From positions 12,326 to 76,325 of the IMG/VR virus record IMGVR_UViG_3300045988_106833: DNA of 64,000 nucleotides; one strand, 5' to 3'. The DNA comes from a virus. Of the stretch, positions 4,934 through 47,763 are shown one piece after another. The number at the start of each line of letters is the position of its first letter. The stretch's first letter is position 1. Both the position numbers and the translations under genes were made by a program. Below the pieces are notes generated by a model. That model saw only the letters and a program-made list of their open reading frames with translations, was not told the origin of the DNA and made no database searches.

Positions 4934-7900
4934 TGGCTTCACAATATAGTATTTTAAGGCAATATGCCCCGTATGTTAGTCCTTACAACATAGATCTTGT
5001 TAAGGATGTCATGATGTACAAACAGCAGAAGGTTGATGCTGCTCGTGAAAAGATCTATACCCAGGTAGATTATCTTATGGGTCAAGAGATAGATAAGCCT
5101 GAAGCCCGTGCTTATATGGAAGATAAGATGTCAGGTGTGATTGCTAACATCAATCAAAAATTTAAAGGCGTGGATCTTTCTTCTGATGGTGTTACGAGAG
5201 CCATACAAGGAGAGATTAGTTCGGTGTTGGATGATACGGTCATTAACGCGATTGCCGGCACAAAAGAAGGCAAGAGGGTCATGAAGGAAATAGAATCTAT
5301 AAAACAGAATCATCCTGAACTTTATTCTCCTATTAATGAATGGCATGCTTTGGATCCTTATTACAAATGGAGGTCAGATGGTAAAGCAGGATCAAGGTTA
5401 GGGGGTCTTCATTATTCTCCTTATGTAGATTACACTAAGGAGATAAATAAGCTGGTTAGTGACTTTAGGAAAAATAACGAAGGCAAGAAGATTCAGACAA
5501 CAGAATATGATGTTAAAGGTAATCCTACTGGTGGTATTATAGAAGTTAATGTAGATGAACTTACAGATTCCCAGATAAGGAATTTTGTGTCTGCTAACTT
5601 ATCTGAAAACATGAGGAATCAGATGAGAATAGAAGCATCGTACATGGCAGCCACCAATCCGGTGTTCAGTAATCCGGATTTGGTTAGTCAATACATTGGG
5701 TCTTATGTCGAAAGATACGATAGACACATAGGAGCATTGGAAGCGAAAAAGAAATCAGTAGGTGATAATAAGAGTATTATTGATCGTATTGACAGTCAGA
5801 TACAGGAAGCTAAAAATCAGAAAGCAGAAGCCAAGAGGGAGGCAGATATGATAATAGCTTCGTCTGATCCGGTAGCGGCTGCTAATTTTGTTGTTACCAA
5901 TAATCTTTTCGATAAGATGACTGATGCATGGAGATACGACAATACAAGTTTTGAAAGGAAGAAAGATGATCTTTATTTTGCGAGGTTAGAAGAGGATAGG
6001 GCTCAGCAAAAGTTTTTGACTGACAATGCTAAGTCTATGGTTGAAATATCATTGGCAAAAGAGAAACTTGCTCAGGCTAAGATTGAAACCGAGTACATGC
6101 GCACTTACGGCTCCAAGATGGGAACTGAAAGCTCATCCGCAGGCGGCATGAGAGTGCCGATGGCTCCTATGGACGGGCCTACGGCCATTAACTCTGGCAC
6201 AGGTAAGACAGGATCTGTTAATTTGGCCAATATTCCTTACGAGTTACTTAAATCTCATTCTATAGATCGTAAAGCCAATTTATTGAAATTATATAACTCG
6301 TTATCTCCTACAGATAGAAGCAATATCGTTGCAGCATCATACGAAGAAGAAAAAACTGATCCAGGATTGTATGCTAATATGACTCCTGAAGAGCGGATAT
6401 ATTCTTATTTGAAAAACAATGGAGGTCAGAAAAACGGATATTTCGGACAAGGAAATAACAGATTGTCTGAAGCTTATGATGCTTTACTTCTTTCTGATTC
6501 TAAGGCAAATGGAGCCACAAAGGCTATAAATAACATAACTAATTATCAAATCGATAATATAGTTACTGAAAAAAATAAGGATATTATCAGGAAGGTTCGT
6601 AATGCTAAGTTTATGAAAGGAAATTCTTTTATAAATCTTACCGATACAGATGATAAGGCTGGAGCTTTCCTACTCGCCACGGCCATAACAACTGGCGTAT
6701 CTGATGCCGTAGGGTTTAGAGAGTACATGATGGATCCTTCAAGAGGAATAGATATTCTTAGTGCTATATCTCCGTCATTAGGAGCTAAGGCGAGTGCCGG
6801 TAAGTTGGGGAAAAACATATCTGATGCTATTACAGGCGAGGATAATGGTTCTTCTACTGGCACGTTGGCTCTTATTAATGGAATGAAGAAACTCAATGGT
6901 GATCCCGATTTTAATATATCCGATTATATGACTATAGATAAGGATGGTGATATAGATCTAAAAGATTATCAGGAAGGGGAGCCTTTGACTATTACTCAGT
7001 TAAGATATGCTGAGAAAAACAGTAGGGTGTCTGATATGATAGCAGGTCAGATGCAGGATGAGATAAAAATGTCTGTATCTCCCGATCAGATTTCTGATAA
7101 GTTATCTCAGTATCATTACCTTGATTCTTACAAAAGATACAATTGGAATGCCGATTCACCGGAAAAGTCTTTGCAGAAGGCTCAGTTTAGAAGATTGTCT
7201 GGTTACATGGCAGGAAAGGTAAATAATCTGGATCCTACTGCTATTAATGCCATTAATATGGATGCCGAGATAGATAATGGCACTGTTAGAAGATTCTTGA
7301 CTGCTCAAGTAGGTTCCGGTAAAAATTCTTATGTTACAGAAAGGGTAGAGATCACAAATGATGAGCTTCTTAAGGCAGGTATAGATCCTTCGGTTGAGGA
7401 GCGCAATTATCCGGTGGATGGTTACAAATCAAGTTTTGGAACCTGTGATTTTGTAGATACCGGAAAGAAGGAAGGCTATTCTTATGATAAGTATCTCATA
7501 CGTAATGGTCTTCCCCGTTTGGCTTCTAAGGCTGATGTTAAGAATGATCTTTATGATATAGTAAAGGTGCATGGTTCTTATCTTAAGCCTGAGGAAATGA
7601 ATGTTGTTAAAACCCTTGTTGATAATTTCATTGATATGTCTGACAACATATCAGTTCAGTTGGAAGGAATGGATGACAGGGGTTCGAGAGAGGTAGCGGT
7701 CAATTTCTATGATAAAAGGACTAAAAATTCTAAAAATCCTGCATTGTTGTTCTCGGATTTTGTTCCTTTGGATCCGGGTAATGATGAGTATGCGGATTAC
7801 TGGAATAACATTCACCAGAAGTGTCCTCAGTACTTCTTTGTAAAATACGTGAAGGAGGCTGTTCAAGAGCGTCTTGATCAGATGAGAGATCCGTATATGA

Positions 7901-10900: not shown

Positions 10901-13900
10901 GTAAGGCAGTCTATAATTGATAAACTATATACAGGTAATGCCGATCTTCTTACTGCGAGAGAAAAAGATGTGTATGATAAATACAAACAAGATTTTGATG
11001 ATTATGTATCGTCTTTGGGTGACAGTCCCGTTAATCTCATAAAATCATTATCTGAAAAGGCTGATAGGCTTACAAGTCCGAGATCTGTGTATGAGGATAA
11101 TAAAGCTATTATTGATATGGCTAAATCCAATTTAGAACCAGATCAAAGGAAGGAACTTGATGATGCTATTTCTTCGTATGTTGATATAATGAACAGACGG
11201 GATAAAGGGGAGAAGGTTGACGAAGATAAGCTTGCTGATTCGGTATTTACCATAGAAGATCTTGGTCAGGTTGGAAACATCACAGATCTCCTTCCTTATA
11301 TTGAACAAAACAGGATTATTGACAAAGGTCGTATTTCCGAATCTACGTTAAGTAATTTTGGAGAGGATGATGCTAATATAGATTCTCTTGTAAATGAATT
11401 AGACGAATCTGACAATACACCGGGAGCTAACATAGATAGCGTCCAGAATCCAGAGACGTTGATGGTAAGAAGAATCTCCAACGACGGCAATGAAAGGTAT
11501 GAAATTGCCGGTCTTAGAGCCGATAAATTTATATCTTCTATAAAATCATTGGTTCCTATTCAAATAAGCTCTGAAACGAACGCTAATGGAACTAAAAGGT
11601 ATTTCCTTAACATAGGTGGAGAAACGGCTACCGTGATAGAACTGCCTTATCATGCAAGATGGTCTATAGACAAAGAATCGGCTCGTGTTCTTAACCGTTA
11701 CACAGATGTGTCTATTCAGGACGTGGGTAATTCCTATTCTTTGGTTTATAAGCGTCTTGATTCAGATGAGTTGGTTCCGTACAGAACGGGTGTCGGATTC
11801 GGAGAGAATGAAGTAGATAAAATAGATCAGGAAGCATTATCTTCTTTGAAAAAAGGAGATAAGGTTAATCTCGAAATAGATGTAAATGATACCTATAATC
11901 AGTCTCTTTTTGCCGAATACAATGATGCTGTTCAGTCCGGCGATAAAAAAAGAATAGAATCTGCTGAGAATAAACTGGTGTCCAATATGGTTATCAAGGT
12001 CATGAGTGGGAACAGATTCGTTTCTGTTGTAAAAGCTGACACAGGGGGCATAGATGGTATAAGTAAAATAAGAAGAACGGCTTTTAACAAGTGGAAGAAA
12101 GATGCTGGTCGGTCGGCTACCATCAGCGTCGGCACGCATGTTGTTGCCCAGACTCTTCCCGGAAGACCGGTGTTTAACATGAAGGTAAACGGTCAAGGAT
12201 ATGGCCAGGTAGAAAATCTCCCTATTACCGAAAAAGGTGCTGAAAAAGTATCTGATGTAGGATATGTATTAAATGGCAAAGTCGTGCTTAAGAACGGATC
12301 TAAATACACAGGCTTCCCATTTGCTTATTCTATATTAAATGACAAGGGGAATAATTACAAAAATATAAGAGTTCCGGTAGTTGTTATCAAGGGTAAAAAC
12401 GGTCTTAATTATCTTTTCCCGGTTAGTCTACGTTCTGTAGAATCAGAGGAAGGAAAGAAATGGATTTCTTTTATAGATATGCTGCTTGAATCCAGTGGCT
12501 CTGAATTGTTACAGATGGGTCAAGATGATATACAAGATCTTAATGCGTATCTAACCAAGTTAGGTCTTGATCCGGCTTCGTATCAAGTATCGTACTTGAA
12601 TCCTATTTCAGGGCTTAGAAAAGCTCGTGAGGCTATAGAAAAATTATCTACGGTTCCTGATGTTGTTAAGTGGGTAGAAGATGGAAGTAGGAGCGTGAAA
12701 GACATTGTGACGTCTGAAGTAGAATCTGGAATAGATTTTGAAGGTGAGATGTTTGTTGCTCCTAAGATCAGGATCCAGTTTGGTAAATCATCTTCCAGAC
12801 CTAAATCACTTATAGAGGACGATCTTCCTTTCTCTGATGAGGGTAAAACCGTTACTTCTAAGGAAGACGTGGAAGTTTACGAAGAGGAAATGCCAGAGGA
12901 AGGGGTTGTCCGGGAGACTCAGCCGGCGCCACCGGCTCAACCGGCTCCTGCGGCACAAGCTACGCAGTCTTTACCTGGCAAGAAGCGTACCTCCAGGAAA
13001 AACTTCTCTCTTATGTTAAACGAAATAGAATCTCATATAGAAAAAGAAGGATTGCCGCCTTATGCTAATATTTTTGATTTTATAGCAAGGAAGATTGTAG
13101 GAGGTGACTTGAGGTTTCTTCGTGAGAGAGGTAATCCTAAAAGTCTTAAGGAGGAAATGGGATTAGAACCTAAAGGAACAGTAGGTGATAAGATATCCAC
13201 TCCTTCCAAGAAAGGTGGTAAGACTTTAGAAGAATACGTTTCTTGGCTTCGTTCTCAAACAGATCAGGTGGTGGTGGATTATGTTGGGCCAAGATCTGAT
13301 GAACAAATTATATCAGAGTTGAAAAACTTTTTGAAATATATTAATTTTGTTCCGAGTAAGGCTTTGAATTATTCTCTTAGAGTCAATGGCATGGACACCC
13401 TAAAGGAATATGGCACAAAAGAGGAAGTAGAAAAAATGGAATCTGATATCAATAGTTTGGTTTCTAAAGTTTTGCCTACGGTGGATAACCAAACTATAGA
13501 AGATGTTTCTACTGCAATAAAATCAAACAACTTGCCTGCTATATGGGAGCCCGTGGAAAGCCTTAATATGACAAATGAGGAAAAAATAGAGTTTTTGAAT
13601 AACATAGCGGATTTCCTTAGCGGCATACCAAGGTATGATGCTATTGTGGGGTCTATAGAGTCGGAATCAGATAATATTTTAAATGATGGAAAAGAAGGAA
13701 GTGCAGAAGGCGGTGCAGTACGCACTGAGGAGGATGGCGATAAAAAGGGAGATGGAGAAGGCAAAGGACAATCCAGAACAAATGTCGAAGTTAAAGGAAA
13801 TGTCGAATTACCTGGATCTGAAGAAGGAAGAGTAGATAACTATAGGAAGAACGGAGATAAGTTCTCTGACATTGCTGAAGTTACTTTATGGCTACTTAGA

Positions 13901-40846: not shown

Positions 40847-41862
40847 CGCTTTATCTTTTTAGACGGATCCCAATCCGAAGAGAAAGGGCATTCGTTTTTG
40901 TTATGTAATCCAAAGTCACAATAATAACACAGTGCCGACGGGCAGGGTAGCTTGTTTTGCGAAACAGGTTGGCTTAGGGTGGCACGCCGCTTGCTATATC
41001 TGGCTCCTTCTGCTCCCTGGATGTATGCCTGAAATGTTTTTACACTATTATCTTCAAAATCATACATTTTAGATAAAGTGTCATTTAGCATTTCTATAGA
41101 TTTTGTTTTACGCTCTTCATTTACCTTAACCTTTTGGTACTGCCTGGTTCTGGTAAAGAAATAGATGTTCATATCTGGCAGAACTCCACCATATTTTCTA
41201 TAGATGTAAAATGAATATATAGGATGCTGTAAATTCGTTTCCAGCTTCTTAGAGTCAAAAACCTTATTCCCTGATTTCCAATCTATGACATAATGGTGAA
41301 CTACGTTCTTGCTTTTTATAGCCAGATGAAGATCCACTGATCCTACTATGTACACATGGGTATGAATTACCCCATTTATATCAACAGGCTTAGGAAGACG
41401 GTACGGCAGCACAAAATCTTCTTCGACTCCAACTATGGCGCCGTGCCTGATAAGTTTCTCGCAGGGATTAAGATCACTATCAGCTATCATAAACCTATTG
41501 CCGTCTTTTTTAAATAGATCCACAATCCAAGCAAGAAGCTCCCCGGATTGCTTCATGGCTATCATCATATTTTCCGGTGATTGCCAAGGTATGTCTTCTT
41601 GGTAAGCATAGTAACTTATCGCTTCTCCAAGGTCTTTACCAGAAGGCTGTCTTCCGTTCTTGAAGAAGTATTCCAGTGTCTTATGAATAACCGTACCATA
41701 AGACGTAGCTTCTTGTTTTTCCGTAGATCTTTTACCTTCCACATAAGTCTTATACCATTTCATTGGACAAGTAAGAAACGTATCTATCTGGGAATAGGAA
41801 ATGGCAAGACGTTTCACGCCATTAAACTCCTTATATAGCAAATGCGTTTCCGGGACCATCAT
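40843..41862 (-). CDS. PD-(D/E)XK exonuclease of the Cas4 / RecB-like family with a C-terminal Cys cluster (339 aa)
   Basis: N-terminal SQIDTFLTCPMKWY, then IVGSVDLHL and VIDWKSG (D...D/ExK-like), and C-terminal CPSALCYYCDF...ECP. This is typical of Cas4-like Fe-S nucleases (established pattern). Confidence 0.6.
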   Translation of the reverse strand: MMVPETHLLYKEFNGVKRLAISYSQIDTFLTCPMKWYKTYVEGKRSTEKQEATSYGTVIHKTLEYFFKNGRQPSGKDLGEAISYYAYQEDIPWQSPENMMIAMKQSGELLAWIVDLFKKDGNRFMIADSDLNPCEKLIRHGAIVGVEEDFVLPYRLPKPVDINGVIHTHVYIVGSVDLHLAIKSKNVVHHYVIDWKSGNKVFDSKKLETNLQHPIYSFYIYRKYGGVLPDMNIYFFTRTRQYQKVKVNEERKTKSIEMLNDTLSKMYDFEDNSVKTFQAYIQGAEGARYSKRRATLSQPVSQNKLPCPSALCYYCDFGLHNKNECPFSSDWDPSKKIKR

Positions 41863-42218
41863 AAGTCATTGTCTTTAAATCCTTCCGGGTAATATACGAC
41901 ATACTTCTTACCGTCTTCTGGTGTCATGGCAAACTGCATGTAGTTATTACGATTACGATGCTTGCCATCTAATCCTCGCTTCCAATACAGGATGCCGTCT
42001 ATATCCACATAAGACCGTCCGCGTTCGGCTCTAACTACGTCCGTGTGTAGCAGATACCCGTCGGAAGACACGATCCATACTTTATCCCCTTTGTTTAAAT
42101 AAGATATTCTTTTTCTTACAACAACCTTTTTCTTATTATCCAATGCAAATTCTTCGTCAGTCATATTCTTCATCCTCCTCTTCTTCTGTTTCAAAATCAA
42201 TTCCATAACACTGATCAT
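41859..42218 (-). CDS. hypothetical protein (119 aa; may start at M19 after GAGGAGG)
   Basis: ORF track. There is an internal ATG with an SD at 9-nt spacing. Confidence 0.5.
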   Translation of the reverse strand: MISVMELILKQKKRRMKNMTDEEFALDNKKKVVVRKRISYLNKGDKVWIVSSDGYLLHTDVVRAERGRSYVDIDGILYWKRGLDGKHRNRNNYMQFAMTPEDGKKYVVYYPEGFKDNDL

Positions 42219-42352
42219 AATGTCCTGTCAGTTCTTCTGGTTCTAAATCTTGCCCAAAATCCATATTAAAAACATATTAATCAATAAAGCACTAAAAATC
42301 ACTATTTCTGCTGGAATAAAATCTATAAATGCTGCTTTTATTTCTTCAATTA

Positions 42353-42390
42353 GGCCCAAGTGTAACCTTGGGCCATTGTATTTATTTTTT
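42353..42390. terminator. perfect 8-bp GC-rich hairpin (ggcccaag/cttgggcc) followed on the plus strand by ATTGTATTTATTTTTT
   Basis: Read directly. It lies between two minus-strand genes, but its U-tract is on the plus strand. Confidence 0.4.
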
Positions 42391-44082
42391 GTCATCTCCT
42401 TTTAACTTCTTTAAAGTATCTGCAATCGGAAGCTGATCAATGACTCCCAGCGCTGGAGCAACGGCCTTAACAACATTGTTAAGGAAATTACCGGTGCTGT
42501 TTTGACCACCGTCAAATACCGTGATATTTCCGAGATTGATGTGCTCGAACGCCTTAACCTGTTCTCCAGCAATTTCTTTCCACTGATTAACCATCTTGTA
42601 CTGGATGGCGATCTGGGGATTGGATTCTGCTGCTTCCACCATAGCCTTAAATCCGTCGGCTTCTGCCATTAACGACTTTTTCTTACCTTCGGCTTCTGCC
42701 TCCAGCTTCATCTGAATAGCTTTTGCCTCTGCCTCAGCTTTTGCCAAATGTGCTGCTGCCTCAGCCTCAGCCCGGCGTTTGATCTTCTCGGCCTCGGCAT
42801 CAGCTTGTAAGATAGCCTCTTCCTTCTGGGTTTCAGCCGGCACAATCTTTTCAGCCTTAAGCGCAGCCTGAACTTTCTTAGCCTTAGCTTCTTCCACTTC
42901 TTTATCAGCAAGCTCTTTTGCCGTTTTTACAGCCGCTTCCGATTTAACTTTTTCTTCTCCGGCCTTCTTTTCTGATTGAGCTTTGATAATCTGTAGTTCT
43001 GATACTGACACAGCAACCTCCTTCTGGGCATTGTTGTATCCTATAGACGCATTTTTCTCAGCCTCAGCCTTCTTAATCTGAGCTTCAGAGTCTTGTATTG
43101 CTATAGCTGCTTCCTTGTCAGCTTCAGCCTTATTCTTTCCGACTTCTTCCATCCTTTCAGCCTCGGCTTTATTTACTTCAAGTTCTGCCTTAGATCTTAC
43201 AATCGCCGATTCCTTGTCGGTTAAAGTTTTTGCGATAACCGCAGCCCTGTCTCTATCTGCTTGAGCTACGCCGATCTGTTTCTCTTTATCGGTTAAAGCC
43301 AAGGCTATTTCTTTTTCTTTCTTCGTTTCAGCTACTATCGTTTCCTTTTCTTTTTCAGTACAAGCAATTTGAATCTCTTGTTCTTTTTTGGTATTAGCCA
43401 CAGCCGTTTCTTTCTCCTTCTGCTGTACAGCAATCTTAATAGCACCCAGCTTCTCCTGCTCTTCGATATTAGCTTGTGCTTCGTTCAGAGCCCTACTTTC
43501 AGCCTCCTTACCAAGGTTCATAATATAACCTGCTTCGTCTCTGATGTCACTGATGTTGATGTTCAGGAGGTAAAGACCTAACTTGTTAAGCTCGTTATCA
43601 ATGTTCTTTCTTGCCTTATCCAAAAACTCATCCCTGTCAGAATTAAGTTTTTCGATTGTCATTTCAGCAATAATCAAACGCATCTGACCGTAAACGATGT
43701 CCGTAATAAGATTTTCAGTAGATTCGGTATCCATCCCCAAAAGTCTTTCTGCCGCATTTTGCATGATTTCGGGATTTGTACTGATAGCTACTGTAATGGT
43801 CGTAGGTACATCTACTCTAATATTCTGAGATGACAAAGCACCGGTAAGCTTGCAATCTATTTGCATAGGCTCCATTGACAAAACATCATAGCTTTGAATA
43901 ATAGGCAAGACGAATGCCGCTCCACCATGATATAATTTCGCCGACTTCTTTTCCCCACCTGTCTTACCGTAAACGACCAAGACCTGATTAGGCTTACATC
44001 TACGATACCTTGATAAGACTCCGATGATTGTCAAAATAATCACTACAGCTAAGATAGCTGACACGTACATGATTGTTGTCAT
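42382..44082 (-). CDS. SPFH-domain flotillin-like membrane protein (YqiK-like), 566 aa with a long Ala/Glu/Lys coiled-coil repeat region
   Basis: N-terminal TM, then RYRRCKPNQVLVVYGKTGG...LYHGGAAFVLPIIQ...QNIRVDVP...PEIMQNAAERLLG follows the E. coli YqiK/flotillin pattern. Repetitive coiled coil at the nucleotide level. Confidence 0.8.
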   Translation of the reverse strand: MTTIMYVSAILAVVIILTIIGVLSRYRRCKPNQVLVVYGKTGGEKKSAKLYHGGAAFVLPIIQSYDVLSMEPMQIDCKLTGALSSQNIRVDVPTTITVAISTNPEIMQNAAERLLGMDTESTENLITDIVYGQMRLIIAEMTIEKLNSDRDEFLDKARKNIDNELNKLGLYLLNINISDIRDEAGYIMNLGKEAESRALNEAQANIEEQEKLGAIKIAVQQKEKETAVANTKKEQEIQIACTEKEKETIVAETKKEKEIALALTDKEKQIGVAQADRDRAAVIAKTLTDKESAIVRSKAELEVNKAEAERMEEVGKNKAEADKEAAIAIQDSEAQIKKAEAEKNASIGYNNAQKEVAVSVSELQIIKAQSEKKAGEEKVKSEAAVKTAKELADKEVEEAKAKKVQAALKAEKIVPAETQKEEAILQADAEAEKIKRRAEAEAAAHLAKAEAEAKAIQMKLEAEAEGKKKSLMAEADGFKAMVEAAESNPQIAIQYKMVNQWKEIAGEQVKAFEHINLGNITVFDGGQNSTGNFLNNVVKAVAPALGVIDQLPIADTLKKLKGDDKK

Positions 44083-44113
44083 AACTTTTAAAATTTAATT
44101 GTTGATAAAAAAA

Positions 44114-44608
44114 TTAGATACTTAATTCTCCTTCTTCATATTTTATATTCGCCTTGTCGCCGTTTTTGTAGGTTTTTCCAGACAAGCATCTTACTCTCAT
44201 TTGCTCTTGTCTTCCATTTTTCGAAATATTTACCATATAATGATTCTTCCCTGATCTAAATACTATCTCCACTTCTTTTCCGTTTAAATCTTCCGGACAT
44301 TCGTACACCATTTCTTGTTTTAACTTAAGAAGTAACTTATATACGTAAAACAAAACGATAAAGAAAAACGACCCTATCACAACCCCTACTAAATGGGAAC
44401 CCGAAAAGTAGGTAGTCCAGCTATATCCAAGAATAAAATGTGTTATGCCCTTGAATGATATGATGTCCGACAAAGACATGCTTAAATCAGAAGCACTGTC
44501 AATGTCAATATCCGTATCCAGATCAGATCCTAATATCGACAACAAAAACTGTATAACAAAAGCAAATGATGCTATTAAAGCCATGCATAAAATTATGTCA
44601 CTTCCCAT
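44114..44608 (-). CDS. NfeD-like membrane protein (YqiJ-like), 164 aa
   Basis: N-terminal hydrophobic helices plus a C-terminal short beta-rich domain (GKEVEIVF...VRCLSGKTYKNGDKANI). Its position immediately upstream of the SPFH gene is the canonical NfeD-SPFH arrangement. Confidence 0.5.
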   Translation of the reverse strand: MGSDIILCMALIASFAFVIQFLLSILGSDLDTDIDIDSASDLSMSLSDIISFKGITHFILGYSWTTYFSGSHLVGVVIGSFFFIVLFYVYKLLLKLKQEMVYECPEDLNGKEVEIVFRSGKNHYMVNISKNGRQEQMRVRCLSGKTYKNGDKANIKYEEGELSI

Positions 44609-44849
44609 ATCCTTCTGTTATTATTTTGTAAACAAGATCAGTCATATCTTTGATGGTCTCCATATCATAATCAATAATAACAATATTGAATTTTTGTTCC
44701 ACCATCACTTCCAGTTCAATTTGATCAACAGAATCTAATCCAAGTTCTTTAAACGACACATCTTCTTCATGAACTATATCTATTTCTGAATTAAGAAACT
44801 GAGTAATAATTATATCCTCTATTATCTTTCTGATTCTTACTTTTTCCAT
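44598..44849 (-). CDS. acyl-carrier-protein-like small protein (83 aa)
   Basis: FKELGLDSVDQIELEVMVEQKF matches the ACP phosphopantetheine-site consensus (DLGxDSLD..EL). Confidence 0.5.
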   Translation of the reverse strand: MEKVRIRKIIEDIIITQFLNSEIDIVHEEDVSFKELGLDSVDQIELEVMVEQKFNIVIIDYDMETIKDMTDLVYKIITEGYGK

Positions 44850-45550
44850 TGCTTTCTAATTTTGTTAAACAAATACGTTTTTATGTTTTTCAATCGCTCT
44901 TTGTCTGTTTCAGAACTTCCGGTAAACAAATAATCCGGATTGCCTTTAGCCGGCGGCGTAGGCAATTTAGATACGGCAAACAACCAATCCATTTCCTTAT
45001 TCTTCTTAGACTCCAAATAAGGCTCGGTAGCGATCTTAAATTTTTCAGCTATTAAGTCAAAGAGCTTTGAATTTTTAAGGTTCATATGAACTGAAAAAGC
45101 CTGAGAAGGCGGTTTCCATATGAAGTTACATAAGCTCATTGTATAATCTCCTGACTCTGCTATATAAGATTCCGTTACCTGAAGTATGACCTCTTTCTTG
45201 AATGAGGTGTTACCCATAAACCAACACAATCTGGATTCCGCTTCTTTTCTACTGACACCTATGTCTTTTGAATATGATTCGTACATTCCTATCATAATCT
45301 TCAACGTTTCCAGGACCTCGTCCGTCATTTCCGGTGTCTCTATATAATTCACAAAAGACGTTCCTTTGTTGGTCAATCTCATCACGCCTGATTTTAATTT
45401 CTCAACCAGGCCAAGCTCTATATACCTCCCAGCATCTTCCTCCGGCATGGCTTCGATCATAACCGAATCCTTCTGTCTTATGGCAAGAAGATTAGCCAGA
45501 TCATTAGGAGTCATGTCTGATGCTGCAAGTTGTCTGAAATTGATGTACAT
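44837..45550 (-). CDS. hypothetical protein (237 aa)
   Basis: ORF track. Overlaps the ACP-like start. Confidence 0.55.
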   Translation of the reverse strand: MYINFRQLAASDMTPNDLANLLAIRQKDSVMIEAMPEEDAGRYIELGLVEKLKSGVMRLTNKGTSFVNYIETPEMTDEVLETLKIMIGMYESYSKDIGVSRKEAESRLCWFMGNTSFKKEVILQVTESYIAESGDYTMSLCNFIWKPPSQAFSVHMNLKNSKLFDLIAEKFKIATEPYLESKKNKEMDWLFAVSKLPTPPAKGNPDYLFTGSSETDKERLKNIKTYLFNKIRKQWKK

Positions 45551-45552
45551 AC

Positions 45553-45750
45553 CTAATCAGCTTTAATGAAAATAACATTCTTGTTATCTTGTCTATCAAT
45601 ATGTTTACATGGACCAATAATCATGTCTGTACATGAACAATAATAGTATTTTTCAAATATACACCTATCGCATGTATCACCTTCCACACATTTTAATCTT
45701 ACAAGTCCGGCAGCAAATACTTCTCCTACTTTAAATTCCTTCTTTTCCAT
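45553..45750 (-). CDS. small Cys-rich protein (65 aa), paralog of 63538..63798
   Basis: Shares the CVE...CDRCIF...Y.C...C pattern with the 86-aa protein at 63538..63798. Confidence 0.5.
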   Translation of the reverse strand: MEKKEFKVGEVFAAGLVRLKCVEGDTCDRCIFEKYYYCSCTDMIIGPCKHIDRQDNKNVIFIKAD

Positions 45751-45765
45751 ATTCCCTCCTTGTTT

Positions 45766-46368
45766 TTAACTGTTGTACCCTTCTTTAATAATCGAATTTC
45801 TACCGGTAGATACCGACTGTCGAAGATCGTCATGTACAGAATCTACCGTAGAATACTTGTTTCTGGTTGTAAAAATCACTTCCAGCATCTCCTTGTAATC
45901 ACCTAAAGCTACTTCGTATCTCGGATCTACTTTGGCTTTTCTTTCAGCCTCGGCATTACTTTTAGCCAGTTCTCGATCAAGAAGATCTTCTTTGATTCGG
46001 TCAGCAATCATATCAAGTTCTTTTTTAATAACTTCTCCTGCTGCCCGAAGTTGACCTTCTACGTCACCAAGCTGGTCTTGGACGGTTCCTATTTCTTTCT
46101 TTAGGCGATCGTATTCGTTAATCATACCCATATCACCTGCATAGCCGGAAAAGTCCTTGATTATTCTGGTTCCTTCTTTAAGGAGCTCAATAACTCGTCT
46201 TTTACGTTCTCTGCTTATTAAAGACGGAAGACGATAATTCATATCCGCCACCGCCTTATCATGTATGGAGTTGATTAAAAACATCTCTCTTTCATCTCCT
46301 GCAAACTCAGTAAGAACCAAAAGGAACTTACTTATCAGGTATTCGTTTTCTTCTACTGTTAGTCTCAT
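45766..46368 (-). CDS. hypothetical protein (201 aa; start moved to M52 of the track ORF)
   Basis: The first 51 codons of the track ORF overlap the DnaB-like gene in another frame. The ATG at 46368 lies just downstream of the DnaB stop. Confidence 0.5.
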   Translation of the reverse strand: MRLTVEENEYLISKFLLVLTEFAGDEREMFLINSIHDKAVADMNYRLPSLISRERKRRVIELLKEGTRIIKDFSGYAGDMGMINEYDRLKKEIGTVQDQLGDVEGQLRAAGEVIKKELDMIADRIKEDLLDRELAKSNAEAERKAKVDPRYEVALGDYKEMLEVIFTTRNKYSTVDSVHDDLRQSVSTGRNSIIKEGYNS

Positions 46369-46382
46369 GGTTCTTATTTTTT

Positions 46383-47516
46383 TTAATACAATGACTGTTC
46401 TTCTTTTGTCTCTTGTTCTTGTTCCTGATTGTCCGTAACGTCTTCCACAGTATAGAGCTTGGGAGGCGTCGGCGGCTGGTTGGGGTTCACGAACTTCGTC
46501 CCGCCCTCCCCGTACATCCATCCATGTCCCGGCAGGATCTCTGGGTGGATTGTATTAGTAAGCTCTTCCATACTAACTTGCCTTACCTTCAGTATATGAT
46601 GAAACACAAGTCCGGCTGTCCTGAATGATGTTTTGTTTTCAGTTTTAAACCTATCAAGAGTCTGATACCAATCTTTCCCAAATATCATATACTTATCCAG
46701 CCCGTACCTACGAGGATTGTGCAAACCTATCATTAACGTACATAACTGACCCAGCGTATCAGATTGGTAAAAATCAGAAAGACGCGGAGGCTGCTCTTGT
46801 GGGCTTTTTATCCTTCCTTCTATCTCTCTGTTGAATTGGGATATGATGAGGAAAAATATGTTTTTATATACTAATTTAGCTTCGTTCATAACCGCCACCA
46901 AATCATCTATAGCCGACTTAGGATCTAACCCCATTCTTTTTATCAAAGCAATATGATCGACTTTAAATATTATAAGACGTTTGTCTTTGTGTTTGGTAGC
47001 TATATGATACACAGCCGCCTCAAACTCTTTTACCGTACACGGAGCATCGATGTATATTATATTATTCCTGATTTCACCTTGAAGGATTTCAAACATCCTC
47101 ATCTCTTCTACTGTATTAGAATCTTGCCTTCTTAATATTTCAGGAGCTCGCTTTTTCATATCTTGGCTCATTCTACGAAGAAGAAGATCTTGAGGATTCA
47201 TTTCGAACTCGCAATTAACAAGAAAATAATCTTCTGCTTGCGGGTTGATCATCGGATTCATCACATTTTCCAATATCTTTTGGGCCACATACGATTTACC
47301 TACAGATGGCCGGGCTCCTATGGCAATAGCGTGCTGAGGAAAAATACCTCCAAGTAAAGCTTCGTCAATATAATCGTATCCGGTTTTAGCGGGGATAAGC
47401 TCTCCCCGCCTGTATTTCAATATATTCTCATACGCCTCTTCCATAACCTGTTTAGAGGTCTTGAATATCCTTCTTATATCTATCCTATTTGCTATCTCCT
47501 CTTGCATTTTTGTCAC
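46383..47516 (-). CDS. DnaB-like replicative helicase (RecA-fold C-terminal domain only, 377 aa)
   Basis: TGYDYIDEAL.GGI.PQHAIAIGARPSVGKS (Walker A), IIFKVDHIALIKR, and LIISQFNREIEGR correspond to the DnaB H1, H2 and SQLNR motifs. Confidence 0.75.
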   Translation of the reverse strand: MTKMQEEIANRIDIRRIFKTSKQVMEEAYENILKYRRGELIPAKTGYDYIDEALLGGIFPQHAIAIGARPSVGKSYVAQKILENVMNPMINPQAEDYFLVNCEFEMNPQDLLLRRMSQDMKKRAPEILRRQDSNTVEEMRMFEILQGEIRNNIIYIDAPCTVKEFEAAVYHIATKHKDKRLIIFKVDHIALIKRMGLDPKSAIDDLVAVMNEAKLVYKNIFFLIISQFNREIEGRIKSPQEQPPRLSDFYQSDTLGQLCTLMIGLHNPRRYGLDKYMIFGKDWYQTLDRFKTENKTSFRTAGLVFHHILKVRQVSMEELTNTIHPEILPGHGWMYGEGGTKFVNPNQPPTPPKLYTVEDVTDNQEQEQETKEEQSLY

Positions 47517-47763
47517 CTTTCGTATCCGATTTGGATCCCCTATTAGCTTTTACTGATTTATACCTAAGACCGTTCTTGGTATGAGAACAATCCTTGCCTT
47601 TCCTCCAGCCCTTTCCCTTCTTCTTGTCCGTTTCGTAGTTTTTACGACCAAGCTCTCGGCGTTTGGCTTTCTGTTCCGGTCTGGCATTTATCTCCTTGTC
47701 TTTTTTAGCCTTTTTCTTCCTGGCTTCGGGATGAGTCCTGTAGTACTCTGTCGATCTACCCAT
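47485..47763 (-). CDS. highly basic Lys/Arg-rich small protein (92 aa)
   Basis: ORF track. The composition suggests nucleic-acid binding. Confidence 0.4.
   Translation of the reverse strand: MGRSTEYYRTHPEARKKKAKKDKEINARPEQKAKRRELGRKNYETDKKKGKGWRKGKDCSHTKNGLRYKSVKANRGSKSDTKGDKNARGDSK

Follow-up and report, generated by a model that had tools for sequence, protein, structure and literature searches.

A flotillin gene and its NfeD-like partner gene, a pair of Bacteroidales operon type, in the early region of a prevalent human-gut phage

The DNA analyzed here is a stretch of 64,000 nucleotides (nt) from the IMG/VR virus record IMGVR_UViG_3300045988_106833 (positions 12,326 to 76,325 of that record; this whole stretch is called the window below). 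Its minus strand carries a gene for a flotillin of 566 amino acids (aa) at 42382-44082 and, directly upstream, a gene for a membrane protein of 164 aa at 44114-44608, the operon partner of the flotillin. A complete cellular SPFH-partner operon in a phage is new here, while phage-borne SPFH genes and a machine annotation of the locus in GenBank were already known. The phage is among the most common large ones in the human gut, and it keeps this flotillin-plus-partner pair under selection as strong as that on its replicative helicase. An acyl carrier protein (ACP)-like gene (83 aa, 44598-44849, minus strand) adjoins the pair and is probably no part of it. The first-pass annotation, made from the letters of the DNA, had joined these three genes into one functional unit of consecutive overlapping genes. 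All three open reading frames (ORFs) are present on the minus strand at the positions it gave. The overlap holds for the ACP-like and partner genes, which share 11 nt, and does not hold for the partner and flotillin genes, which are separated by a 31-nt A/T-rich spacer.

The region matches the human-gut phage csAssE-Sib (OR575929.1, 151 kb) with 96.9% identity over 3.6 kb and is co-linear with it. The GenBank annotation of this phage already reads 'acyl carrier protein', 'transmembrane protein' and 'flotillin family protein'. The flotillin occurs at 96% identity or above on 164 IMG/VR contigs, many of them 140-155 kb long, and the cassette is present in nearly all of about 160 IMG/VR contigs; the scans of viral contigs were dominated by the same phage species. 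A sister phage lineage (L163 and L164, about 150 kb) retains the order of a 237-aa gene, ACP-like gene, partner, flotillin and a short ORF with a transmembrane (TM) helix. Taken together, the identity and co-linearity with csAssE-Sib, the 164 contigs and the synteny of the sister lineage confirm that the block belongs to a phage, as first proposed, and host-derived flanking DNA is ruled out by the co-linearity with a complete phage genome. Judged by the capsid protein, the Cellulophaga phages phi17:2 and phi4:1 (34% identity, 145 kb) are the cultured phages nearest to this one, and the structural genes of csAssE-Sib were given crAss-type names (ring, muzzle) by its depositors. The pair is flanked by genes for a DnaB-like helicase, a primase, helicases and a PD-(D/E)XK exonuclease, and a scan of 5.8 kb (41800-47600) found no intrinsic terminator on the minus strand. 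The phage that carries the pair in its early/replication transcription unit is a prevalent csAssE-Sib-like phage of Bacteroidales from the human gut, about 150 kb in size.

The larger product is a flotillin, yet its profile scores place it outside the FloT equivalog of B. subtilis. It matches Pfam Band_7 (PF01145) with 91.7 bits against a cutoff of 23.6 (E = 7.6e-26, aa 30-211) and Pfam Flot (PF15975) with 39 bits against 27 (E = 9.8e-10, aa 450-559), but reaches only 143.8 of the 700 bits set for NCBIfam FloT (NF058507). Human flotillin-1 and -2 chains are among its co-linear PDB matches. With E. coli YqiK it shares 24% identity and is co-linear over nearly the full length, from the N-terminal anchor to the C-terminal domain. 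All parts of a flotillin can be traced along the minus strand. The N-terminal membrane anchor (aa 1-28, 43999-44082, hydropathy window 2.83) is a TM helix followed by RYRRCK, and Cys29 with its flanking basic residues is invariant across phage and bacterial copies. The next part, the SPFH/Band_7 domain (aa 30-211, 43450-43995), is predicted by the positive-inside rule to be cytoplasmic and shares 80% identity with Bacteroides and Prevotella copies. The coiled coil (aa 212-449, 42736-43449) consists of Ala, Glu and Lys for 55%; it is the most diverged part of the protein, with 45-64% identity to bacterial flotillins and a 22-aa insertion in the phage copy, and its length varies in wild genomes. 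The C-terminal Flot domain (aa 450-559, 42406-42735) is again close to bacterial copies (79-86%). The initial description of a YqiK-type flotillin with an Ala/Glu/Lys coiled coil was thus accurate.

How far can the 164-aa partner be called NfeD-like? Its AlphaFold model has membrane helices at aa 2-26, 46-69 and 72-101 and a six-stranded C-terminal beta domain, with a predicted local distance difference test score (pLDDT) of 75-81, and hydropathy peaks at aa 1-30 and 67-96 point to an N-terminal polytopic membrane anchor. The predicted C-terminal domain (aa ~105-164, 44117-44296, minus strand) is a beta barrel of OB type with five or six strands, like those of YuaF, PH0471 and PH1510-C, which is the mark of short-form NfeD proteins; the position of the gene directly upstream of the flotillin gene, co-oriented across the short spacer, is the short-form gene context. 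The profiles tell a different story, since Pfam, PHROG, NCBIfam and PADLOC had no match for the partner, Pfam NfeD (PF01957) none even at E <= 5, and a phmmer search of the PDB gave only a spurious SpoIIAA match (E = 0.1). The partner belongs to a family of 233 proteins recovered by exhaustive profile search, mostly of 155-185 aa, to which Pfam is essentially blind: a single member out of 64 aligned matches Pfam NfeD, at 6e-5. Distant members have sub-threshold NfeD matches on the C-terminal domain (P0181 with 25.1 bits against a cutoff of 29.1, and also P0170, P0113 and P0184). The only PDB match of the family profile outside TM segments is the soluble domain of YuaF, and it is weak (hmmsearch E = 0.36); the hhalign comparison of the partner with E. 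coli YqiJ is marginal (E = 0.029, probability 1.7%). In UniProt a full-length homologue with 34% identity, encoded on a contig labelled virus sp. ctML55 (BFVD entry A0A8S5RJ68, 175 aa), is called 'NfeD-like C-terminal domain-containing protein'. Characteristic of the family is an acidic DxDxDxD loop between membrane helices, followed by SFKGxxHF (44465-44527, minus strand), and residues D31, D33/35, S51, K53, G54, H57 and F58 are invariant or nearly so in the 64 aligned members. The partner is therefore NfeD-like by modelled fold, architecture and context, and it fails membership of the curated profile. Of the first-pass claim of an NfeD-like membrane protein, the membrane helices and the C-terminal beta domain hold in the model, but the Pfam NfeD match, which had been set beforehand as a check on the claim, is lacking. 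The DxDxDxD loop of the family resembles a cation-binding loop.

The cellular flotillins found to be closest to the phage protein are encoded on the chromosomes of Bacteroides, Parabacteroides, Phocaeicola and Prevotella, with 62-70% identity. Of the 80 Bacteroidales loci compared, 79 have a gene of the partner family next to flotillin, directly upstream and co-oriented with it, and the eightieth has no upstream DNA. The same pair is found amid housekeeping genes on two metagenomic bacterial contigs (L082 and L162). The Bacteroidales operon, for example in B. thetaiotaomicron, Parabacteroides and Prevotella, consists of a partner of about 165 aa and a flotillin of about 545 aa in the same gene order and on the same strand as the phage pair, and its partner shares the DxDxDxD/SFKGxxHF signature. 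There are differences as well. Bacteroidales flotillins have a K/E-rich C-terminal tail which the phage flotillin is without, and the phage context, unlike that of the bacterial operon, adds the ACP-like gene upstream and an ORF of 50 aa with a TM helix downstream. The median identity among bacterial flotillins is 87%, against 66-70% between the phage copy and each of them; among bacterial partners the median is 60%, and the phage partner reaches 32-42%. In both gene trees (neighbor-joining, midpoint-rooted) the two phage lineages stand together, apart from most of the sampled bacterial genera. Phocaeicola vulgatus is on a long branch near the root, and the phage placement is therefore provisional. 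Because the same pair is universal in Bacteroidales loci and both phage lineages group together in the trees, we conclude that the pair was captured as a unit from an operon of Bacteroidales type before the split of the two phage lineages. The universal operon partner of about 165 aa of the Bacteroidales flotillin, which Pfam does not recognize, can now be annotated as NfeD-like.

If the pair was captured before this split, then we can ask: How strongly has it been conserved along the two lineages? Ratios of nonsynonymous to synonymous substitution rates (dN/dS) were calculated within the species, pairwise, from IMG/VR alleles; between lineages synonymous sites are saturated, and identity and nonsynonymous divergence (dN) are given. 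Flotillin has 82% identity between lineages, the lowest dN of the genes compared (0.12) and a within-species dN/dS of 0.037. The corresponding values for the partner are 62%, 0.26 and 0.059, for DnaB 79%, 0.15 and 0.052, and for the exonuclease 78%, 0.17 and 0.049. The ACP-like gene retains its LGLDS motif at only 38% identity (dN 0.58, dN/dS 0.41). The pair is under constraint equal to that of the replication genes, and the ACP-like gene is about tenfold less constrained. These values make it extremely unlikely that the pair is a recently acquired passenger without a role in infection. Deletion and stop-codon variants do exist, as such a passenger might show, but the pair has been retained in two lineages with saturated synonymous sites, its dN/dS lies in the same low range as DnaB's, and nearly all of the IMG/VR contigs contain it.

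Natural variants of the locus give a second view of selection. Internal stop codons were found in 5 of 54 ACP alleles and, always within codons 405-527, in 4 of 79 alleles of flotillin, and in none of five other genes checked. Knock-outs of the ACP-like gene and of flotillin never occur at one locus. In the contig L251 (32 kb, syntenic on both sides) flotillin has been deleted so that the N-terminus of the partner is fused in frame to the C-terminus of flotillin (5001-5591), and the ACP-like gene is intact. Several different deletions in wild genomes take away most of the flotillin gene and likewise join the 5′ part of the partner gene to the 3′ end of flotillin, some in frame and some not; the proteins of such variants are P0020, P0027, P0028, P0031, P0035, P0045, P0046, P0009, P0013 and P0022. 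In-frame deletions of 85 and 99 aa within the coiled coil are present in P0288 and P0293. The pair is conserved strongly when intact and lost now and then, that is, it is conditionally dispensable. These deletion, truncation and coil-length variants represent a natural experiment: the pair matters in the infected Bacteroidales cell, and alleles are ready for testing. In SPFH cages the coiled coil forms the wall. Among the variants the flotillin length makes a series of 531-566 aa, no tandem repeat in the DNA accounts for the variation of the coil, and coil length variants might alter the size of a cage.

The ACP-like product is a convincing relative of acyl carrier proteins, as the first reading of its Asp-Ser motif had it. 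It matches Pfam PP-binding (PF00550, 26.8 bits against a cutoff of 20.8) and PHROG 5934 'acyl carrier protein' (2.2e-8), has an isoelectric point of 4.28, and gave 65 PDB matches, every one of which, among the matches listed, is an acyl carrier protein. Its LGLDSVDQIEL aligns with LGADSLDLVEL of 3gzl and 2fq0, which lets Asp39-Ser40 coincide with the Asp-Ser that is modified in solved ACPs, where helix II begins; codon 40 (TCT, 44730-44732, minus strand) thus codes for the predicted 4′-phosphopantetheine attachment Ser. All NCBIfam ACP cutoffs (for example TIGR00517 and NF002148) are missed, the best score being 29.9 bits against 71, and by this measure the protein is no AcpP orthologue. A homologue search gave, among the matches listed, only the phage's own variants. 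Variability within the protein is highest at residues 41, 43 and 45, in the recognition helix. Of 121 representatives of ACP clusters in a large protein database, 18 have lost Ser40 to Pro, Phe or Tyr. Every replacement is a one-base change of TCT, and the variants occur on several backgrounds, each on as many as 20 contigs; among IMG/VR haplotypes Ser40 is replaced in one of 103. Loss of Ser40 may be due either to decay or to selection against the holo form. As a carrier the protein would have to depend on the phosphopantetheinyl transferase of the host. In csAssE-Sib, outside positions 100001-107763 of the record (about 7.8 kb), no phosphopantetheinyl transferase, acyl-ACP synthetase, acyltransferase or lipid enzyme is annotated, many genes being called 'hypothetical'; this agrees with the first-pass remark that neither a phosphopantetheinyl transferase nor an acyl-ACP synthetase could be recognized.

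Could the three genes nevertheless work as one unit, in which the holo-ACP delivers acyl groups to lipids or to the scaffold, for example to the juxtamembrane Cys29, and a phage-specific microdomain is built? Two phage lineages keep the order from the 237-aa gene to flotillin together with the 11-nt overlap of the ACP-like and partner genes, no minus-strand terminator interrupts the scanned block, Cys29 beside the TM helix is invariant, and the ACP-like protein retains an acidic isoelectric point and the helix-II motif. However, no homologue of the ACP-like, 237-aa or 50-aa protein was found within 4 kb of any of the 80 Bacteroidales partner-flotillin loci. Between-lineage identity and dN/dS separate the ACP-like gene from flotillin, wild ACP alleles carry stop codons or have lost Ser40, and knock-outs of the two genes do not coincide, the flotillin-deleted L251 keeping an intact ACP-like gene. 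Other phage SPFH loci do not have an ACP, and no acyltransferase, acyl-ACP synthetase or phosphopantetheinyl transferase is annotated in the covered parts of the genome. Gene overlaps are the rule across the whole tightly packed block (the ACP-like gene also overlaps the upstream 237-aa gene, by 13 nt), so that the overlap with the partner says nothing specific to the three genes. We consider the single unit very unlikely, and in this point the first-pass annotation is not supported: the ACP-like gene is absent from the bacterial operons examined, its dN/dS is 0.41 against 0.04-0.06 for the pair, and its knock-outs are independent. Because every comparative test that might link it to the pair was negative, the ACP-like gene is treated here as an independent accessory gene, probably under relaxed or diversifying selection; the sole argument for a link is adjacency conserved in two related phage lineages. 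The ACP link lay behind the exotic appearance of the locus and is unsupported, and the finding reveals no new kind of system.

What might the phage gain from the pair? It is plausible that the phage builds or remodels a membrane scaffold with it. With slightly better than even confidence we favor a host-derived auxiliary SPFH scaffold pair which serves maintenance of the host cell, the ACP-like gene being an independent neighbor. Partner and flotillin would insert in the inner membrane during infection with their soluble domains in the cytoplasm, as suggested for both by the basic residues that come after the last TM segment in each. The OB domain of the partner would bind flotillin and aid its oligomerization, as proposed for cellular NfeD partners, and flotillin would assemble a cage or microdomain like those of cellular SPFH-NfeD pairs. 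This complex may supplement or replace the host's own, and so may keep membrane-protein folding, fluidity and energization in the stressed, shut-off cell to the end of the cycle. The help would be conditionally dispensable, since rare wild genomes have the pair deleted or truncated. Work on cellular pairs gives this sequence of steps its model. In stressed S. aureus, FloA-NfeD serves as a holdase, independent of ATP, for unfolded proteins (PMC11222466). A role of NfeD partners in promoting SPFH oligomerization has been proposed (PMC13086221), and the QmcA-YbbJ cage of E. coli consists of 26 heterodimers, as far as the work of Tan 2024 is reported in PMC13086221.

Several points weigh against this favored reading. 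The physiological role it gives to the pair is inferred throughout. The host already owns such a pair, and the benefit of a second copy is unexplained; a dominant-negative or re-targeting role would fit the data equally well. The cassette lies amid replication genes, and a role linked to replication is possible. Adjacency and the 11-nt overlap of the ACP-like gene are kept in both phage lineages, so that it may have some link after all, and the rare deletions show that the pair is non-essential.

A role linked to replication would be that of a membrane platform, a flotillin microdomain which anchors the replisome or factors of assembly or lysis. Flotillins concentrate multiprotein complexes in bacteria. 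The pair is set between genes for a DnaB-like helicase, primase and exonuclease with no minus-strand terminator at 41800-47600, its coiled coil has been remodelled relative to the host's in a way that could change cage size or clients, and the distant Cellulophaga phage phi17:2 likewise keeps an SPFH gene in its early region. But the position within a long, mixed early block is weak evidence, and deletion variants persist in nature, which means that the phage can replicate without the pair. No membrane protein of the phage was recognized as a client, and the 50-aa TM neighbor is weakly constrained. Such a platform is unlikely.

The accessory-like pattern, with strongly conserved intact copies among segregating deletions, truncations and length variants, may also be read as that of a gene for conflict, by which the pair guards the membrane against depolarizing or perforating abortive-infection effectors or excludes superinfecting phages. 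The early region contains many small genes of no assigned function, and unrelated phages repeatedly carry SPFH genes to which no role has been assigned (PMC1524935; PMC13239085). A PADLOC search with the ACP-like, partner, flotillin, 237-aa and 50-aa proteins gave no match to a defense system, though, and the SPFH and C-terminal domains, with a dN/dS of 0.04, are not under diversifying selection; what the phage carries is a host housekeeping protein copied conservatively, not a fast-evolving inhibitor. This makes a conflict gene decidedly unlikely, and for the same two reasons, the absence of PADLOC matches and the low dN/dS, a component of a defense system was rejected.

A device for counter-defense or takeover is a further reading. 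Here the pair would co-assemble with the flotillin cage of the host or displace it, and would protect the inner membrane, or a site of phage replication bound to a membrane, from abortive-infection effectors that disrupt membranes, with the ACP-like product as an apo-protein adaptor or decoy. The first part is suggested because the coiled coil has been remodelled and is variable in length while the SPFH and C-terminal assembly domains are host-like, and the second because the attachment Ser is recurrently lost and the recognition helix is variable. We give this combination a very low probability, and the host-maintenance scaffold stays the favored reading.

It is useful to set the pair beside known systems. 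In YqiJ-YqiK of E. coli and YuaF-FloT (YuaG) of B. subtilis, as in the phage, a small polytopic membrane protein with a C-terminal OB domain is encoded directly upstream of a flotillin of about 550 aa; these pairs differ in that they are cellular, not viral, and that the likeness of the partners in sequence is marginal. FloA-NfeD of S. aureus and QmcA-YbbJ of E. coli, likewise operon-encoded SPFH scaffolds with an NfeD partner which aids oligomerization, supply a mechanistic model (cage or clamp, holdase). FloA and QmcA belong to the short, stomatin-like SPFH proteins and lack the long coiled coil of flotillins which the phage protein has, and YbbJ is described as a long NfeD (PMC13086221).

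Bacterial flotillins are widespread; their physiological role is debated, and knock-outs often show little phenotype. In phages, SPFH/Band 7 ORFs were listed for the T4-like phages 44RR, Aeh1 and RB43 in 2006 (PMC1524935), and according to a 2026 paper their presence in phages is still unexplained (PMC13239085). These ORFs, together with those of Vibrio phage KIT04, Cellulophaga phage phi17:2 (gp169) and phage GIB1, are solitary genes, mostly in early or accessory regions. For example, KIT04 has a solitary flotillin with 29% identity and no recognizable partner, and gp169 of phi17:2 is a non-flotillin SPFH protein of 259 aa (Band_7 36 bits) followed by an ORF of 38 aa and an OmpA-family membrane protein (gp169-gp171, L253 33187-35070). 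Acyl carrier proteins known from phages (PHROG 5934), whose genes are annotated as auxiliary metabolic genes, are likewise small, acidic PP-binding proteins with a DS motif; the one described here differs from them in having no cognate enzymes nearby and in the loss of its attachment Ser in a minority of wild alleles. By tblastn among 50,697 GenBank phage records, this partner and this ACP occur only in csAssE-Sib, and the 237-aa protein and the exonuclease are essentially limited to the same phage. One further record with a flotillin match, 'Bacteriophage sp.' MT835570.1 (9202-17783, L250), is not to be counted as a phage flotillin; its DNA looks bacterial, with high GC and, by eye, an apparent phosphofructokinase and an MFS transporter. 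We found no paper that mentions flotillin in crAss-like phages, and nothing useful on the function of Bacteroides flotillin. SPFH genes recur in large phages of Bacteroidota.

The genes next to the cassette are less informative. The 50-aa ORF with a C-terminal TM helix (42243-42395, minus strand), with which the 3′ end of flotillin overlaps by 14 nt at its stop, is conserved in position and weakly constrained in sequence. Its counterpart in the sister lineage has 52 aa with 38% identity (dN 0.65), the within-species dN/dS is 0.34 with many copies gapped, and in P0232 and P0247 it is fused in frame to the C-terminus of flotillin. The ACP-like gene upstream and this ORF downstream are probably phage-specific, weakly constrained neighbors of the pair rather than demonstrated components. 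The 237-aa ORF (44837-45550, minus strand) is well conserved within the species (dN/dS 0.051); its single-sequence AlphaFold model is unusable (pLDDT 35), and a PDB search with it was empty. Pfam, PHROG, NCBIfam and PADLOC gave nothing usable for the 237-aa and 50-aa proteins or for a further one of 119 aa. Scans of the window and region for tRNA genes, Rfam families and tandem repeats gave no match, and a scan for sigma-70 promoters and terminators, which does not cover Bacteroidales or phage promoters, was at chance level.

Two ORFs farther upstream deserve mention. The first one, of 65 aa (45553-45750), has a within-species dN/dS of about 1.05, and it is perhaps no constrained gene or else under diversifying selection. 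The second, of 251 aa (45766-46521), overlaps the DnaB gene (46383-47516) by 139 nt, and its first ~50 residues do not look protein-like. In the sister lineage and in other contigs a product of 200 aa was called for its counterpart (L163 5878-6480, L251 3241-3843), and its true start is probably an internal ATG (MRLTVEENEY...).

On the scale of the genome, the GC skew flips sign at about 32 kb of the window (from +0.15 to -0.21), where plus-strand structural genes give way to the minus-strand early/replication block. csAssE-Sib encodes two TnpB genes and a diversity-generating retroelement. The sister lineage has a nicotinamide phosphoribosyltransferase gene, and in one of its genomes an IS605 OrfB/TnpB element has inserted directly upstream of this gene (gene and element: L163 15180-16034 and 16233-17707; L164 14880-17342).

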